Shown here one piece after another: positions 39,001 through 45,000 of a DNA stretch of 64,000 nucleotides. Made by a program: the position numbers. Position 1 is the first letter of the stretch, and each line of letters opens with the position of its first letter. This DNA comes from an uncultured Gemmatimonadaceae bacterium (GTDB lineage: Bacteria > Gemmatimonadota > Gemmatimonadetes > Gemmatimonadales > Gemmatimonadaceae), in assembly GCA_963817955.1 (NCBI GenBank), contig CAWFQK010000004.1:576001-640000 (forward strand). Reading direction: 5' to 3'.

Positions 39001-42000
39001 AGTCGCGCGTACTCGTCGTAGGTGTGCACACCGCGCGCGCGCATGCGCACGGCAATCCGCCGGCGCAGACACTTCTCCTTGTACGACGCACAGCCGAAGC
39101 CGCGCTCCGCGGAGATCTTGTGCGTCAACTCCAAGAACCCAGCCTGCTCCTGCTCCTGCTCCGGCATCAATACACCTGCCGAATCGATTCCAGATTCGTA
39201 CGCACGATTGCGTTGTTCGGATCGAGCTCGAGCGCCCGCTCCCAGCAGCGTAGCGCTTCATCGCGCTCCCGCCGCCGCAGGCGAATGTTGCCGAGCTTGA
39301 GATAGACGTCGGCCCCGAGATCCGGGTCCGCCTTCGTCGCGCGCAGGTACGACTCGAGGGCGTCGTCGTACCGGCCGCCGCGGTAGTGCAGGTCGCCCAG
39401 GTTCTTGTGGAGCTGCGGCATGCCGGGATCCTCATGGAGGCCGCGTTCGATGGTCTCACGCGCATTGTCGTAGGCCGTGCTGCGTTCGAGCGCCGCGGCG
39501 AGGTTGTTCCAGAGCGCCGCGACGTGCGGATGGGCCGACACGCCCTCTGTCAGCACGATGGCGGCGCGCGACGTGTCTCCGGCGAGCGCGGCCGCAAGCC
39601 CCATGTAGTGGTACCACGCCGCAGTCGGCGGACGGGTGCCGAACAGCGTCCGCGCCGACGCGAGCAGCGCGTCGGCCTCCGCGACATCGCCCGTCATGAG
39701 CGTCACCACACCGAGCGACGTCTGCACGCGCGGATCGGCCGAACCACCGCGCCGCGCGGCCTCCTCGAGCGCTGCACGCGCTTCCTCGTATCGATTGAGC
39801 CGCTCCAGCGCGTAGGCCAGGTTGTGGAACACCGCCATGTGCGCGCCCGGTTGCGCCGCCGCCTCGGAGAATGTGGCGGCCGCGTCTTCCCACTTCTGCT
39901 GGCGGGCCAGCACGAGACCGATGTAGAACCGCGCCACCGCGTCGAATCCGCGCAGATCGAGCACACGCCGGAATTCCCGCAACGCCTCATCGAGCATATT
40001 GGTCTTGTAGAACGCGATCCCGAGGTTGCGGTGTTCCTCGATGCGCCCTTCCGACGGCGCGGGAGCCGGCGGCGCCGTCTTGCCAATGCGATGGATGAAC
40101 CCCGTGGTGAGCAGGCCGTACAACGCCTTCCCGACCTCGAACTCCACGAGGCCTGACTCGTCGATGATTGCTTGCACGTCGCGCGTGCCGTCGACCAACT
40201 CGAGCACGGCACGCTGCTCGTCGGTGAGCGCTGTTTCGCTCGATAGGACCTTGGCGCGATCTATCTCGAAGACAATGTCGAACGTCGGAATCTTCTTCTC
40301 GACGAGACCCCACTCATCGACTCGCCGGGCACCCTCGAGCAGCAGCGACTCCGGATTGATCGATACGACATGGTCATGCTGATCCGGCGCGACGTCAGCC
40401 TCGAAATTGAATGTCCCCTGGTTCCAGGTGAACAGGAAGTACACCGCTTCCTGAATCTGCACATGGATGGCGTCGTGCAACTGCTGCAGACTGAGCGCGC
40501 CCTGCTCCACCAGCAACTCGCCAAGCCGCTTGTCGCGCCGGCGATCCTGCAGCGCCACACTGGCCTCCAACCGCGCCTGCGTGACGATGCCGCTCTTCAC
40601 CAGCATGTCGCCGAGTCGATCGCGCCGGTTCACGATGGAGGCGTAGCAGATGCGGCCCTTTTCGAAATAGACGTACCCAAAGCTGTTCCGGTGCGTGACG
40701 CTCAGGCACCCCGTCTTCTTCCCCATCGCCAGAAGCTGGAGAACGTCGGGAAGGCTCGCTTCCTTGAGGCTGCCGCGGATGGCCATCAGCGCAGATCCTC
40801 GATCAGGCGCGTGCCGGCGTCGGGCCACTGCCACAGAATCTTTTCGCCGTCGAGAAAGAACGTGTCGGCCGTCGTGCGCATTGCCGCGGCACGGGGCGCG
40901 TCGCCCTGCTCCGGTTCGAGCTCGGCACGAATGAACCCGATCGTCACCGGCACGGCCTTCACTTCGGCCGAGGCGACGATCCGGTTCGCGGCACCGATGA
41001 TCTCGCGCACGCTGGCAACCGGTCGGTCGGCAAGATAGTTCAGCATCTCGCCGGTGGGGTCGAGTCCCAGGTCCTTGAGGAATCGCGCAAAGAGCCGCTC
41101 GCGCAGCGACCGGTCGGGCGACTGCATCGGTACGACCAGGCCGCCCTCGAACCGCGAGCGCAGTCGTTCCTCGAGGCCCGACAACTCGCGTGGCGGTCGA
41201 TCGCTGGCGAAGACGAGCTGCTTGCCGTCGGCATACAGCGCGTTGAATACGTGAAACAGCTCTTCCTGCGTGCGTTCCTTGCCGGCCACGAACTGCACGT
41301 CATCGAGCAACAGCGCCGAGGCAGCGCGATATCGCGCCCGCCAACGATCCACTGTTCCCTCCTGCATCGCGGCGATCAGTTCGTCGATGAACAGCTGGGC
41401 GGGCACGCAGGCGACACTGCCGGTGCCCGCCGACGCTTGCACGAGTCCATTGCCGATCGCATTGAGGAGGTGGGTCTTGCCCACCCCGCTCGGCCCGTGA
41501 ATGAACAACGGATTGTACCGGAGTGCCGGGACGGCGACGATGGCGTCGGCGGCCCGCACGGCAAGCTGATTGCACGCCGCCACTTCGAATCCGGCGCGCG
41601 TGAAGGCGGCCGACGGTCCCGGCGGCGGCGTCGACGTGCGAAGCGCACGCTCGAGCAGTTGCCCGGCCTCCTCGAGCCGATCCGGGTCGTGAAAAGCATC
41701 GTGCTCGGCCAACGCGCGGTCGAGACCTGCCACCTGCTTTTCGAGATCACGCAGCTTCGAGACGCTTCCTTCGAATTCGCGCAGCACCGTCTCGACGCTC
41801 GTCGGCGGCGCAGGATCCTGGAGCATGCGTTCGAGCGCAGCGGCGCGATACCCCTCGCTGTTCCAGTAGGCGATCGCCTCCGTCAGGCGGGTTCTCCACT
41901 GCTCGAGATGCTGTGCGACGGCCGCCGACATATTCGAGAGGAAATTCGCGAACTCTCCGAGCGCCTGCGGTGGATTGGCGCGCGGGCGCTGCTCGGCGAG

Positions 42001-45000
42001 GTCGCCGAGGATGCCAATGACCGCGCCGGGGTCGATCTGTTCGCCGCCGAGCGTCTGGAACGCGATGATCCGATTGAGCGCGCCCTGCAGCTCGCGCACG
42101 TTCTTGAATTCCAGACGTCCCACTTCCTCGATGACGCCGGGCCGGAAGCGGACCCCGCGCTCCTCGCACTTGGCCTTGAGAATAGCCATGCGCGTTTCAT
42201 AATCGGGTGCCCCCATGTCGACGATCAGACCACCCGACAGCCGCGTGATCAGCCGCTCGTCCACGTCGCTGATCTCCGACGGCGGCCGGTCGCTGGTCAT
42301 CACGATCTGCTTGCCGGCGGCGGTGAGCGCGTTGAAGATGCGCAGCAACTGCGTCTGCGTCTCGCGATGGCCGGTCAAGAACTGCACGTCGTCGATCAGC
42401 AGCACGCCGATGCCGACATACCGGTTCTTGAACGGTTCTGCCTCGCCGGCCGCGATCGCCTCGTGCAACTCCGCCACGAAGTCGTCGAGCGTGACGAACG
42501 CGACGAGCAGTCCCGTGTGGCGCTGTGTCACGTGATTGCCGATCGCGCTCATCAGGTGCGTCTTGCCGAGCCCCGAACTGCTGTACATGAACAGCGGGTT
42601 GTACACGGCGCCCGGCGCGTCCGCCACCGCGCGCGCCGCGGCCACAGCGAGCCCGTTGGCCGAGCCGACGATGAAATTATCAAACCGGAGCTTCAGGTCT
42701 ACCGGCACGCGACGATTCCTCTCCACGTCGCTAGGGCGCCGCGCCCGCGCCCGCGCTCAGACGCTTGAGCACGAGCTCCGAGATCGAGCGGAGTGTCTCG
42801 AAGACCCCGGGGCCGTGCAGGGCGTCGGCGCCAAAGTCCGGGACGCCTCGAAAATTCAGGGCGTCCGATAGCTCGGGGACGCCAAGGATGAGATCGGCCG
42901 GCAAGTCCTGCTTGTTGTACTGGAGCACGAGCGGTACGGTGCGCGCATCGATCCCCTGCTCGGCGAGATTTGCGTGCAGGTCCTGAAGGCTCTCGATGTT
43001 CTCCTCCACCTGCCGCGCCTGACTGTCGGCCACGAACACCACGCCATCTGCGCCCTGCAGCACGAGCTTGCGAGTCGTCTGATAGTAGACCTGGCCCGGC
43101 ACCGTGTAGAGCTGGAACTTGGTCGTGAATCCGGAGATGGTTCCGAGGTCCAGCGGCAGGAAGTCGAAGAACAGCGTCCGGTCGGTCTGCGTCGCGAGCG
43201 ACACCATCTTGCCTTTGCGATCGTCCGGGACCTGCCCATAGATGTAGTGCAAATTCGTCGTCTTTCCGGACCGGCCCGGCCCGTAGTAGACAATCTTGCA
43301 CGTGATCTCGCGGGTGGCGTAGTTGACGAGAGACAAGGGTGTCGAGCGGCAAGGGTTAGCGACCGAACATCGAAGCGAGGTTGCGATGCAGCTCAGTTTC
43401 GAAGTTCACGTCGAACATGGGTTCGCGAAGAAGCGGAAGCGGCGGCGCGGCAGCGGCCAGATCGCGGCACAACTCGTCGAAGAACAGACGCACCAGGCCG
43501 AGCGAACTTGCCTGGTCAAAGACGGTAAGACAAATGTAGGCACCGCGGCACGTATCCACCGGCGCGAGATAGAGTTGCTTCTCCAAGCCTTCGTGGTGCA
43601 AGCCGTGAAATGGACGTCCATCCAGCTGCCGGCCAAGCTCCCCCGCGGTTGCGTGCACTGCCGATGCGAGCGCACACGCGGTCATGACGTCCACAGCACG
43701 CGTAAAGCCCGCCTGCGCCACCACTTGACCTGACGGGTGCAGGAGCAGCGCGAGACGCGCGCGCGCCTCGTCGACGAACCGCTTGAGCGGCGGTTCGACC
43801 CACGGCTCGACCGTGGCGATGATCACGGAAGAAACTCCAGCGCCTTCAGCAGTTCCACGCGAATCAAACCCACGTTGGCCGCAGCCTCAGCCACGACGAC
43901 GATGACGAGGTCACTGCGCCCGGTACCCGCAGCGCAGATCCGTCCCCGCTCGGCGTCGAGCTGGAGAAAGCCGACAGATCCGAGCCGCGCCGCGTTCGCC
44001 GACAACCGCGCCTTGCGGTAAATCGACGCCGCCAACGCCGCAACGCGGTCGCCATCCTGACCGAAGCGCAGGTTGGCGTCCACTACGAGACCGTCACTCT
44101 GCGAGACGATCAAGCTGGCTCGTACGCCACGGAGACGGGTCAGCGATTCGAGCAGATCAGCAAAGGGACTCATGCGCTCCCTCCCACTCCCCCTCCCCCT
44201 CCCCCGCCGTCGCCCTGGCCCTGCCGCAGCCAGTCAGACGCCCGTTCGACGCACCGATTGAGCAGCCGCCGCAGGAGGCCCAATGGCGTGGCATGCGAGG
44301 CAGCGACAACGACGAGGCTGTGACCCATTGCCGGCGCCATGGCGACCACGGCAGCCTGCGTTTCGAACACGATTGACCGCCATTCGCCAATGTCGAGATG
44401 CCGCGTGGCCCGTAGCACCTCGTCGGAAATGCCGCTCAGTTGTGCACCGATCTCCTGCGCAAGATCGTTTCCTTCCGAATCGGGGTACGACCCACCGACC
44501 ACGTAGCCGCTGACGTCGAGCAGCAAGGCCGTCTGTCCCTGATCAACTAGCACATCCAGGAACAGCATTTGGGGGTCGGTTGCCGGGGGTGCCTCGACCA
44601 CGGGCGCCGGCGCACTGCCGGACGACCGCCGCACCATTTGCAGCGCAGCGGCTACGTCTCCGCCGCCGGCGGCCGCCGCCCGAATGAGATACTGTTCTGC
44701 GTCATCGAAACGGTGTTGTTGAAAACAGACGAAGCCGAGGCCCTTCATGGCGCCAACGTGGCTTGGCACAAGGCGGAGGACCGTCTGCCATTCCTCTGAC
44801 GCGCGCGCAAGGTCGTGGCGATCCACCGCGATTCGCGCTACCAGGTCGTGCGCCTCGGCGTTCGCCGGATGGCGCTCCAATCCGCGGAGCGCGATTTTGA
44901 GCGCGATTTCCACTTGACCCTGGCGGCGCAGGGCCTCGCTGAGCCGGAGGAATACCAGGCTCGATGGCTCGCGTGCCAGCTCGTCGCTCCACCCGTGGAC

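Follow-up and report, generated by a model that had tools for sequence, protein, structure and literature searches.

The soil bacterium whose genome includes the analysed window (the whole stretch of 64,000 nucleotides) belongs to the Gemmatimonadetes and encodes, in addition to its own normal DnaA, a protein that carries two DnaA-type ATPase modules in tandem. Sequence comparisons give about an even chance that this protein serves the PATAN-TPR/MglA-MglB polarity module, under a Che-type pathway, as an ATP-gated adaptor or assembly subunit. The genome-wide survey's note had described it as a pair of DnaA modules with a linker between them. The modules were recovered, but the note had overlooked two motifs unrelated to DnaA that persist more than any other part of the protein.

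Domain make-up and conservation of the ATPase modules

The maximal open reading frame of the tandem gene ("dnaA2") covers positions 40786-42726 of the minus strand, on which all features given below are located. Translation likely starts at the GTG at 42708, which yields a coding sequence of 640 amino acids plus stop codon (40786..42708) matching the database protein P0002. A Shine-Dalgarno-like GGAGAGG (42718..42724) is situated 9 nt 5' of this GTG and next to the mglA stop codon TAG (42731-42733), and at the other end the dnaA2 stop codon and the ATG of the PATAN-TPR gene share one base (TGATG, 40784..40788). The protein matched Pfam Bac_DnaA in two stretches (E 3e-105). As stated in the survey's note, it lacks DnaA domains I, II, and IV, since Pfam gave no match to DnaA_N or Bac_DnaA_C, and it contains two domain III AAA+ modules: the N and C halves matched domain III of Bacillus subtilis DnaA (8bv3/8btg) with E 8e-55 and 4e-50, respectively, and both halves possess the Walker A Lys, the Walker B Asp-Asp, both box VII arginines, and the sensor II Arg. 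The two modules share 42% identity with each other, and 42% (N) and 41% (C) with the organism's own DnaA. The latter is encoded by a single full dnaA gene elsewhere, as noted before (C3:100930-102315); one true DnaA per genome was found in 41/41 Gemmatimonadota genomes searched.

The N module (aa 6-229; 42022..42693) comprises AAA+ core and lid with a complete ATP site and could be aligned without gaps to residues 114-346 of B. subtilis DnaA, whereas the C module (aa 369-592; 40933..41604) aligned to residues 115-327 with one gap of a single residue, located upstream of the initiator-specific region. Residue conservation was assessed in 118 non-redundant, diverse family members with 27-60% identity to P0002. 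In the N module, the Walker A Lys was present in 118, the two Walker B Asp in 117 and 115, the sensor I Asp in 99, the Arg finger in 92, and the sensor II Arg in 112 of these proteins. The respective numbers for the C module were 111 (Walker A Lys), 111 (Walker B Asp), 109 (Arg finger), and 105 (sensor II Arg), with the sensor I Asp in only 24. The C module, complete in its own genome, is thus degenerating across the family, and the ATP site of the N module stays complete. Short forms of the protein lack the C-module lid, and among 11 representatives of such forms the C-module Arg finger was found in 6 and the Walker A Lys in 7.

Residues E183, N187, and I190 of B. subtilis DnaA read the DnaA-trio bases (PMC10721633, in the part available), and these positions are invariant in 30 true DnaAs of the phylum, with Ile or Val at position 190. 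In the tandem protein, positions 183 and 187 are altered in both modules alike, and position 190 is mostly His in the N module (20/30) and Ile/Val in the C module (23/30). At further ssDNA-contact positions defined in the same source, the C module retained Arg at R202 in 100, Lys/Arg at K222 in 81, and Glu at E228 in 108 of the 118 family members, with Ile/Val at I190 in 90. Because several backbone and base contacts show good conservation, above all in the C module, nucleic-acid binding may have been preserved. In this case the tandem modules could polymerise in an ATP-dependent manner on ssDNA or the nucleoid and help to position the polarity/chemosensory complex or to partition it, in analogy to the ParA-like ATPases that some che operons encode. 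This explanation would fit the contact residues and the initiator-specific region, which is ungapped in the N module, but we consider it unlikely: a domain IV for loading onto DNA is missing, the base-reading residues E183 and N187 are altered in both modules, His replaces I190 in the N module, and the C module, which bears the ssDNA-contact residues, is the one that is degenerating or lost.

Gene cluster and distribution

According to Pfam, NCBIfam, and PDB sequence matches, the gene order is cheW-cheY-cheA-cheC-TPR-PATAN-TPR-Roadblock-MglB-MglA-[dnaA2]-PATAN/TPR-cheR-cheD-cheB-cheW-cheW, followed by a further TPR gene. Upstream of dnaA2 are mglA (42731-43336; Myxococcus xanthus MglA 5ymx, E 2e-75), an MglB-like Roadblock gene (Roadblock-2, 43356-43826; MglB 6h5b, E 3e-10), and a second Roadblock gene (Roadblock-1, 43823-44173; Roadblock 7yh1, E 1e-6). 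Of the two mglB genes postulated previously, only one (43356-43826) matched MglB, and the other had only generic Roadblock matches. Next are genes, assigned by Pfam and NCBIfam, for a TPR protein (44170-45324), a PATAN protein (45005-45961), a large TPR protein (45847-48540), CheC (48577-49194), CheA (49201-51273), CheY (51150-51512), and CheW (51539-51994); from the TPR gene onward (44170..51994) the coordinates are ORF maxima, so that the true starts may differ. Downstream of the PATAN-TPR gene, the same databases identified cheR (38346-39170), cheD (37858-38526), cheB (36801-37907), two cheW genes (36350-36886 and 35868-36353), and the additional TPR gene (35015-35947). The MglA encoded in the cluster is a dedicated second paralog with 62% identity to another MglA in the genome. 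The cluster contains no receptor gene, and all seven MCP genes of the genome that scored over the cut-off are located elsewhere.

The position of the tandem gene between mglA and the PATAN-TPR gene is kept as claimed, with mglA as immediate upstream neighbor in 72/72 loci and PATAN-TPR as immediate downstream neighbor in 64/65. The description as a 17-gene one-strand cluster was correct for the gene order, and the matched genes shared one strand in 78/78 loci, but this strandedness cannot serve as evidence of an operon because it extends over the whole region (the minus strand carries 20/21 confident ORFs of the window).

The PATAN(DUF4388)-TPR protein of 539 amino acids (39167..40786; Pfam DUF4388 and TPR), the inferred docking partner of the tandem protein, had a mean column identity of 71% in alignment A4. 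An insertion within its PATAN domain carries two predicted MshEN-type c-di-GMP-binding motifs, RLGDMLVKSGIVTQARLEASVALQ and RLGELLVEQGALSLQQLHDAIHVQ (40457..40618), which were recognized by NCBIfam NF053729 (45.7 bits; cut-off 38) and by a motif scan based on a published definition (PMC5013675), and which are conserved in alignment A4.

The tandem family was found only in the class Gemmatimonadetes, where it is near-universal in the order of the host and patchy in other orders; a sample of 19 genomes from the phylum's other classes did not contain it. Within the order, the gene was present in about 119/125 genomes of a second family and in 53/70 sampled genomes of the Gemmatimonadaceae, so that its reported conservation across the latter family was overstated. 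The distribution outside the Gemmatimonadota, left aside in the survey's note, is now partly clarified: the tandem family was found in this class only, and DnaA-type AAA+ modules occur in different architectures in other phyla.

Family-specific motifs and natural reduction of the gene

The segment between the two modules measures about 140 amino acids, not ~100 as first described, and consists of a variable stretch followed by about 115 amino acids of conserved sequence. The former is a Pro/Ala-rich spacer (aa 230-250; 41959..42021) with a mean pairwise identity of 0.23 in alignment A5 and widely differing length among relatives. The conserved part begins with a putative helix (aa 251-278; 41875..41958) that is regarded as an adaptor motif, (D)EFxxFL(S)(D/E)V...V..QVE.WR.RV.EA, on the grounds of conservation and of the mini-ORFs described below. 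E252, F253, F256, and W271 are present in 109, 104, 112, and 109 of the 118 family members, respectively. The remaining conserved linker (aa 279-368; 41605..41874; alignment A5) contains the motifs W..EGYRT.RLE.LL, F..DV.RL..L, FRDPDR, and PPPGPS; it had no match in the PDB (best E 0.5) and only sub-threshold matches to the coiled-coil model ABC_tran_CTD, in 20/37 members. The C module is followed by a poorly conserved spacer (aa 593-617; 40858..40932; mean pairwise identity 0.30) and by a C-terminal tail (aa 618-640; 40789..40857), which shows, anchored at the C-terminus, the motif (R/K)SREK(M/V)VW(D/E)WP..(A/G)DR(L/V)(I/V)E(E/D)x(R)-COOH, with conserved E (106 of 118), K (106), W (105), P (94), R (100), and E (107). 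The tail is retained in short forms without the C lid, in loci without cheR/cheB, and in mini-ORFs. The helix (DEFxxFL...W) and tail (EKxVWxWP...DRxIEExR) motifs were found only in the tandem DnaA-module family.

An ORF of 60-75 amino acids with the helix and tail motifs only is all that is left of the gene in ten Gemmatimonadaceae genomes, and the profile of these mini-ORFs matches the position of the linker helix motif in full-length genes. Their stop codon still overlaps the PATAN-TPR start in the pattern of TGATG. In another genome (G084) the C module is gone, and N module, linker, and tail are retained. Reduced forms are interspersed among full-form lineages, a pattern that needs at least two events. 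The tandem ATPase is hence no "fixed part" of the module, as the AAA+ modules were lost in at least two Gemmatimonadaceae lineages in which the cluster or a reduced cluster persists. Since the mini-ORFs hold nothing but helix and tail, the ATPase modules are dispensable and the putative docking motifs are the core. In genus g10, the mini-ORF and the PATAN-TPR gene persist together with the Che proteins and the last TPR protein, and mglA, both Roadblock genes, the other PATAN gene, and two TPR genes have been lost, which makes PATAN-TPR or a Che protein a likelier partner than MglA or MglB. In 9/10 mini-ORF genomes PATAN-TPR has also lost its MshEN insertion, which counts in favor of the adaptor role; G114 retains the insertion despite the reduced gene, which counts against it.

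The absence of the AAA+ modules in some lineages, along with the near-uniform gene strand and conserved gene order of the region (PMC11237797, in the part available), might also suggest a decaying fragment of a duplicated dnaA that is carried along without a role of its own. This is very unlikely given the intact ORFs of 620-700 amino acids in the 118 non-redundant members down to 27% identity, the invariant N-module Walker A Lys, the family-wide conservation of helix and tail, and the high frequency of the gene in the second family of the order. The reduced forms, too, have been conserved as ORFs, with 36-89% identity among six genomes.

Relation to known systems and proposed role

Both modules can be aligned with domain III of B. 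subtilis DnaA almost without gaps, and the alignment takes in Walker A/B, sensor I, box VII, and sensor II. The tandem protein differs from DnaA by the missing domains, the two modules per chain, the added helix and tail, the altered DnaA-trio base-contact positions, and the location of its gene in a polarity/che cluster apart from a separate true dnaA. Public sources label relatives "DnaA/Hda family protein", and Hda/HdaA are likewise DnaA paralogs cut down to the AAA+ part. Hda consists of one module and an N-terminal clamp-binding motif and acts through contact with the AAA+ modules of DnaA, thereby tuning initiation. If the modules of the tandem protein contacted the true DnaA in this manner, via Arg fingers or ATP faces, replication would be coupled to the polarity or chemosensory state through the placement in the cluster. 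The identity of about 41-42% to domain III of the own DnaA, the retained box VII arginines, and a match to the NCBIfam Hda model TIGR03420 (E 9e-49) agree with such a function. It is nevertheless quite unlikely, because the TIGR03420 score of 166 is below the cut-off of 194.8, the protein has two modules and begins at the first domain III residues with no N-terminal extension for a clamp-binding motif, its gene has a different context and never adjoined dnaA or dnaN in the loci examined, and the AAA+ modules are gone in ten genomes in which helix, tail, and partner gene remain. Fusions also argue against it: DnaA domain III is linked elsewhere to MshEN (P0187), in one relative to a receiver domain (P0193), and to TPR arrays in proteins assigned by their sources to Ca. 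Sumerlaeota or Ca. Hydrogenedentota. As fusion evidence, these architectures may be counted in favor of the adaptor role.

With the MglA/MglB and PATAN regulators of Myxococcus and cyanobacteria, the cluster has in common a true MglA, a Roadblock protein similar to MglB, and two proteins of the PATAN type. That PATAN genes are linked to mglA and mglB has been published (PMC4316618); the available part of that article mentions DnaA 0 times, and our literature search found no paper linking DnaA to MglA/MglB-PATAN modules. An analogy, without claim of membership, may be drawn to STAND-type signalling NTPases and to tandem-ATPase switches such as KaiC, the common element being a nucleotide-binding oligomerisation module that works with TPR-type sensor repeats, as in the direct fusions of DnaA domain III to TPR arrays or MshEN mentioned above. 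Here, in contrast, sensor (PATAN-TPR) and ATPase are separate proteins, and the ATPase is of the DnaA clade.

For the proposed adaptor or assembly subunit, we infer from adjacency and co-retention that helix and tail would dock the protein onto PATAN-TPR, which is encoded directly downstream and translationally coupled. The N module would be the working nucleotide site and the C module a degenerating partner that would still donate the Arg finger in full-length forms; this step fails for the short forms, as just 6/11 have that residue. Together, the two modules would pair head to tail as in DnaA or build an open oligomer, and ATP binding and hydrolysis would act as a gate on the assembly of the PATAN-TPR complex. 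The earlier notion that a DnaA ATPase was recruited into a chemosensory/polarity module is thus partly supported, by a DnaA domain III paralog in a conserved slot, although not as an invariable constituent. The tandem protein would have no role as replication initiator. It would add a nucleotide-dependent step to a module that would also read MglA-GTP, CheY phosphorylation, and, via the MshEN insertion, c-di-GMP. Judging by analogy from MglA and PATAN systems in other organisms, the module probably acts on cell polarity or on behavior that depends on type IV pili.

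Make-up of the tandem dnaA gene and its cluster

The minus-strand open reading frame at window positions 40786–42726 gave a stop-free translation. Its likely start is the GTG at 42708, which lies 9 nt behind a GGAGAGG and 22 nt behind the mglA stop and yields a protein of 640 amino acids, the database form P0002; the gene is called dnaA2 here. Pfam Bac_DnaA covered two stretches of this protein (E = 3e-105), and DnaA_N and Bac_DnaA_C had no Pfam match in it. In sequence comparisons with domain III of Bacillus subtilis DnaA (8bv3, 8btg), the N-terminal half (module at residues 6–229) aligned gaplessly across residues 6–238 (E = 8e-55), and the C-terminal half (module at residues 369–592) with one single-residue gap (E = 4e-50). 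Identity is 42% between the two modules and 42% (N) and 41% (C) to the genome's own DnaA, and the Walker A and B, sensor I, box VII, and sensor II motifs of domain III are present twice. Domain I is missing, the first residues of the protein being the start of domain III, and domain IV of the own DnaA was unmatched in the dnaA2 protein and in the tandem-form representatives. The sole exception is P0195, encoded on a 2.7-kb contig, in which two DnaA modules are followed by the DNA-binding domain (III-III-IV) and which may be an assembly artefact. A single complete dnaA is present in the genome (contig 3:100930–102315), besides two weak IstB-like matches.

Against the NCBIfam equivalog model for DnaA (TIGR00362), dnaA2 scored 511.6 bits, exceeding the cut-off of 343.9 because the scores of the two modules sum. 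Automatic annotation will therefore name the protein DnaA, and genomes of the class Gemmatimonadetes will seem to hold two dnaA genes under annotation pipelines; dnaA2 thus is an annotation trap. Public sources indeed name its relatives "chromosomal replication initiator protein DnaA" or "DnaA/Hda family protein". The cut-offs of the Hda/HdaA models were not reached, with 166 bits versus a cut-off of 194.8 for TIGR03420 and 51 versus 300 for NF051883. Hda has an N-terminal clamp-binding motif. Hda/HdaA proteins consist of a single module, whereas the dnaA2 protein has two and no N-terminal extension.

The genes of the cluster, identified by Pfam, NCBIfam, and PDB sequence matches, are all on the minus strand in the order cheW, cheY, cheA, cheC, a large TPR gene, a PATAN (DUF4388) gene, a TPR gene, a Roadblock gene, an MglB-like Roadblock gene, mglA, and dnaA2, followed by a gene for a PATAN-TPR protein (40786–39167), cheR, cheD, cheB, two cheW, and a further TPR gene. 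Their neighbours are a Peptidase_MA_2 gene (34005–35108) at one end and, at the other, genes for a pseudouridine synthase and a signal peptidase II (51960–53666), all on the minus strand. The stop of dnaA2 overlaps the ATG of the PATAN-TPR gene (TGATG). Scans of positions 34000–53900 for promoters (2 found, 2.2 expected) and terminators (10 found, 10.6 expected) remained at chance level. The strand bias is regional, as the minus strand holds 20 of the 21 ORFs called with confidence across the whole window (1–64000), and the window seems to belong to the conserved high-strand-bias region that PMC11237797 describes for Gemmatimonadota chromosomes; in a term search of that paper's text, chemotaxis, DnaA, and MglA were absent.

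An MglA-type small GTPase gene thus stands beside a Roadblock-type partner gene: the cluster's MglA matched Myxococcus xanthus MglA (5ymx) with E = 2e-75, and one of the two Roadblock proteins matched MglB (6h5b) with E = 3e-10, the other giving generic Roadblock matches only. A second MglA paralog, 62% identical, is encoded at contig 4:956547–957023, and mglB-mglA pairs like the one at this locus were found in genomes without the cluster (loci L158 and L159), so the cluster's MglA is a dedicated copy. The genome has two CheA genes, the second of which adjoins receptor genes on contig 7, and seven MCP genes above the family cut-off, all located outside the dnaA2 cluster. No MCP gene lies inside or next to the cluster despite the presence of cheR, cheB, and cheD. 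Just two PATAN genes were found in the genome, both in the dnaA2 cluster, and nine genes for secretion/pilus-type ATPases scored above the cut-off.

Distribution, origin, and conservation of the slot

In a one-genome-per-species scan of all prokaryotes, queried with the aligned sequences of the relatives at greatest distance (P0190 first), 80 loci were obtained, of which 78 were titled Gemmatimonad-, one "Myxococcales bacterium" (a MAG), and one "Bacterium HR33". The contig of the "Myxococcales bacterium" MAG carries a complete Gemmatimonadetes-type cluster from cheA to the PATAN-TPR gene; the probable cause is faulty binning or labelling, not gene transfer. A MAG titled Gemmatimonas sp. (locus L110) has the cluster as well. 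Among the 150 best representatives in a 50%-identity library, about 85 gave two domain-III matches, with domain IV in only one of them (P0195), and every tandem-size cluster of the protein atlas was "commonest Gemmatimonadota".

Within the phylum, 301 genomes were searched with P0002, and a best E value below 1e-65 was taken as presence of the tandem gene; this criterion is our own and was chosen because the true DnaA alone yields best E values of 1e-44 to 1e-61. Read from the best-E table, in which related genomes are non-independent samples, the gene was present in 53 of 70 genomes of the window genome's own family (f1), in about 119 of 125 (some misses lying at contig ends) and 3 of 3 genomes of two families of the same order (f2 and f3), in 5 of 6 genomes of a family from another order of the class (f4), and in 1/1, 0/23, 11/47, 1/4, and 0/3 genomes of the families f5 to f9, respectively. 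The three families from other classes of the phylum (f10–f12) were negative throughout (0/19). The single positive of f8, G097, is an unpublished genome, as are G157, G057, and G182 in the f1 and f2 counts. Within the genomes sampled, the dnaA2 family appears to be confined to the class Gemmatimonadetes.

Where the gene occurs, its surroundings are highly constant. Gene context was surveyed by tblastn of the window's proteins on 80 loci, in most of which dnaA2 is 33–37% identical to P0190 (68% in one); two loci without a dnaA2 match of more than 40% coverage were dropped, and counts were limited to loci with enough flanking sequence. The mglA gene directly precedes dnaA2 in 72/72 loci, the order Roadblock-Roadblock-mglA is kept in 66/70, a PATAN gene lies at most five genes upstream in 60/61, and cheA and cheC are upstream in 42/45. 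Directly downstream, the PATAN-TPR gene follows in 64/65 loci, the sole exception (L053) having an aberrant ORF of 762 amino acids without the C-terminal tail of the family. Both cheR and cheB are downstream in 44/53 loci; in seven of the nine loci where they were not both detected, the PATAN-TPR gene is directly followed by the last TPR gene. All matched genes were on one strand in 78/78 loci.

In a tree of the modules, 29 of 30 N modules (SH-aLRT 99) and 29 of 30 C modules (SH-aLRT 90) formed separate clades, which indicates that the duplication is old relative to the spread of the family. The 30 true DnaAs of the phylum also formed one clade (SH-aLRT 91), with the base of the tree unresolved. 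The two modules of the tandem protein P0148 paired with each other outside the N and C clades (SH-aLRT 89), a pattern that could be caused by gene conversion between the modules or by a separate duplication.

Apart from the genomes with a reduced gene (see below), the genomes without dnaA2 that were examined have lost the cluster. The PATAN gene is missing from the dnaA2-negative G085 and G091, G085 and G072 have a plain mglB-mglA pair elsewhere in the genome, G091 has an MglA homologue, and in five dnaA2-less genomes of other families an MglA homologue was absent from four and a lone mglA present in one. As a side observation, PilT-family matches tend to be more numerous in module-bearing genomes: all 11 such genomes of f7 have at least two and all 36 others at most one; in f1 the ranges of module-bearing and other genomes overlap, kinship and genome size being uncontrolled in this comparison. 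PilT-family genes occur in 291 of the 301 genomes, and their use as an indicator of what the module does is a lead only.

Family-specific motifs and the reduction series

Motif and site statistics were calculated for 118 non-redundant (<90% identity) full-length members that are 27–60% identical to P0002, one of them from the unpublished G157. Mean pairwise identity was highest in the N core (0.52), closely followed by a C-terminal tail (residues 618–640; 0.49), and then decreased from the N lid (0.46), the C core (0.45), an adaptor helix at the start of the linker (residues 251–278; 0.42), and the rest of the conserved linker (0.38) to the C lid (0.33), the pre-tail (0.30), and a variable spacer (0.23). 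The tail motif is anchored to the C-terminus and reads (R/K)SREK(M/V)VW(D/E)WP..(A/G)DR(L/V)(I/V)E(E/D)x(R), with E, K, W, P, R, and E kept in 106, 106, 105, 94, 100, and 107 of the 118 members, respectively. The helix has the motif (D)EFxxFL...V..QVE.WR, in which E, F, F, and W are kept in 109, 104, 112, and 109 members. A linker profile found no relative in the PDB (best E 0.5), and the linker gave no Pfam match above threshold, only a sub-threshold one to the coiled-coil ABC_tran_CTD.

The main new result is a series of reduced forms in which these two motifs outlast the ATPase modules. In the short forms (approximately 570–600 amino acids), the C module stops soon after box VII and the tail follows without a C lid. 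The gene of G084 has kept the N module, the linker, and the tail, with an acidic low-complexity stretch in place of the C module. G036 had been scored as dnaA2-negative, although the rest of its cluster is intact except that cheD was not detected. Between mglA and the PATAN-TPR gene it contains an ORF of merely 73 amino acids, in which an acidic start is followed by GEFADFMADISQEIAQRVES, a Pro-rich spacer, and LIVEWPNIADRMIEEMR, and whose stop overlaps the PATAN-TPR start. Such a mini-ORF was also found in four other genomes of the genus of G036, in three of four genomes of genus g10, and in G168 and G114, giving ten genomes in total. Six aligned mini-ORF sequences are 36–89% identical and have invariant key positions in both motifs. 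On the same 301 genomes, a mini-ORF profile gave full-length matches in these ten only; in dnaA2-bearing genomes it matched the start of the linker and the C-terminus, for example both within one 638-residue ORF of G286.

In genus g10, the cluster itself is reduced to cheW-cheY-cheA-cheC-mini-ORF-PATAN/TPR-cheR-cheB-TPR and lacks mglA, the Roadblock genes, the second PATAN gene, and the other two TPR genes. A tree of the PATAN-TPR proteins placed the mini-ORF lineages g5, g10, and g21 in one clade (SH-aLRT 99) beside genus g9, and G114 with G084 (SH-aLRT 94). Both reduced groups branch from within full-form lineages, so that reduction is the derived state and took at least two events. The mini-ORFs represent a natural deletion experiment that shows which parts form the core.

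Two candidate partners of the tail were considered. In chemoreceptors, a pentapeptide is the tether for CheR and CheB; a comparable function of the tail was rejected, as loci without cheR and cheB retain it. Binding to the last two TPRs of the PATAN-TPR protein is unlikely, as genus g5 has lost both and retains the tail.

The 539-residue PATAN-TPR protein is far better conserved than dnaA2, with a mean column identity of 71% among 32 orthologues. A helical insertion in its PATAN domain (40457–40618, minus strand) contains two near-perfect MshEN-type motifs (RLGD..., RLGE...), both conserved across the 32 orthologues. With the c-di-GMP-binding MshEN motif as defined in the excerpted text of PMC5013675, a scan found that paper's relaxed form at ORF residues 73–96 and 103–126, separated by a spacer of six residues instead of five, and the model NF053729 scored 45.7 bits versus a cut-off of 38. 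Motif and model score agree in marking a putative MshEN-type c-di-GMP receptor, and the conservation of the motifs suggests an input of c-di-GMP into the module. Among the papers listed by a literature search, none linked PATAN insertions with MshEN. In nine of the ten mini-ORF genomes, the PATAN-TPR protein has 426–438 amino acids and lacks the MshEN insertion; G114 and G084 retain it.

ATP sites, DNA contacts, and possible role

The residues scored for the ATP sites align with K178, D235/D236, D269, R285, and R334 of Escherichia coli K-12 DnaA. Judged from these residues, nearly all members have a complete N site: the Walker A Lys is kept in 118/118 N modules versus 111/118 C modules, the first Walker B Asp in 117 versus 111, and the sensor II Arg in 112 versus 105. 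The sensor I Asp is present in 99 N modules but in only 24 C modules (94 C sites lack it), whereas the arginine finger is kept in 92 N and 109 C modules. Of 11 short-form representatives, 10–11 have an intact N site, and the C module has kept the Lys in seven and the finger in six and lost the lid in seven.

For B. subtilis DnaA, the excerpted text of PMC10721633 gives R264 as the finger, I190 as binding ssDNA, E183, N187, R202, and E228 as base contacts, and the Lys222 side chain and the Glu223 main chain as backbone-phosphate contacts. These ssDNA-contact positions are invariant or nearly so in the 30 true DnaAs of the phylum; E183, N187, and I190 show no variation there apart from I or V at 190. 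In dnaA2, the position of E183 is D/E in the N module and mostly Q in the C module, and that of N187 is E/D (mostly E) and D, respectively. At I190, His (69), Arg (12), or Asn (7) occur in the 118 N modules versus Ile/Val in 90 C modules, and the charge at E223 is reversed in the N module (R/K) and kept in the C module (E/D). Arg at R202 is found in 84 N and 100 C modules, K222 is represented by Arg in 81 N and by Lys/Arg in 81 C modules, and Glu at E228 is kept in 95 and 108. Neither module thus retains the conserved DnaA-trio/ssDNA contact set of the initiator-specific motif, and a DnaA-like base-specific reading is unlikely given the changed positions; an unspecific nucleic-acid contact by the C module would still be compatible with its residues.

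DnaA modules also occur in fusions elsewhere. Among library relatives that do not belong to the dnaA2 family, P0193 is a tandem DnaA-module protein with a C-terminal response-regulator receiver domain in place of the tail. In P0187 (1990 amino acids), MshEN is followed by two DnaA modules that a long spacer separates. When its first 460 residues were compared with long proteins, 160 matches at E = 1e-30 or better were obtained. According to precomputed Pfam lists, the best 120 of these 160 contain Bac_DnaA together with TPR families, zinc ribbons, HEAT repeats, or MshEN; 111 have one DnaA module, located C-terminally in most examples listed, and nine have two. Several of the 120 bear the source names Candidatus Sumerlaeota, Sumerlaeaceae, or Sumerlaeia, and one each Hydrogenedentota and Fermentibacteria. 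The fusion proteins (P0187, P0189, and P0275–P0392) have 1100–2500 amino acids. No relative of P0187 was found in the 301 Gemmatimonadota genomes in a stricter first look, the count of which is a floor. The domains fused elsewhere are the same three kinds of parts that neighbouring genes encode at dnaA2, and the long fusions may mean that signalling or scaffold proteins employ the DnaA ATPase more widely than has been described.

The helix and tail would dock on the PATAN-TPR protein, as suggested by the adjacency of the genes, their start/stop coupling, and their joint retention after the loss of MglA and the rest. The N module may act as a nucleotide switch with the C module as its DnaA-like partner, and the state of assembly of the complex would be gated by ATP. 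The analogy with other MglA and PATAN systems (PMC4316618) suggests that the output is polarity or pilus-based behaviour. We regard it as a long shot that the double DnaA module works as a slow timer or assembly switch driven by nucleotides, or as a reader of replication status that feeds MglA/PATAN polarity, and that, more broadly, DnaA-type fusions form an undescribed class of signalling ATPases. Such a timer or switch would be comparable to KaiC, a clock protein with tandem ATPases, or to a STAND protein whose parts are distributed over two subunits.

In the literature search, which excluded subscription-only papers and supplements, no paper combined DnaA with MglA and chemosensory systems or Bac_DnaA with DUF4388, and the matches listed for DnaA with MglB or with PATAN were incidental co-mentions. 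Thousands of tandem-family proteins are present in public databases under the name DnaA; the sequences are therefore known, but the interpretation given here appears to be unpublished.

The DnaA ATPase domain is known almost exclusively from the initiation of replication and from proteins that regulate this step directly. In dnaA2, the domain is duplicated, devoid of its DNA-binding parts, and equipped with two putative docking motifs in a class-wide polarity/chemosensory cluster. If the timer reading were true, dnaA2 would set the refractory period or a commitment step of polarity switching in Gemmatimonadetes; if replication status (ssDNA or DnaA-ATP) were read, cell cycle and cell polarity would be directly linked; and in the broad reading, the class would span TPR, MshEN, receiver, and zinc-ribbon fusions in several candidate phyla. 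The gene offers a testable case of an initiator ATPase re-used as a signalling part and opens a way to study the Gemmatimonadetes, an abundant soil group with unstudied cell biology.
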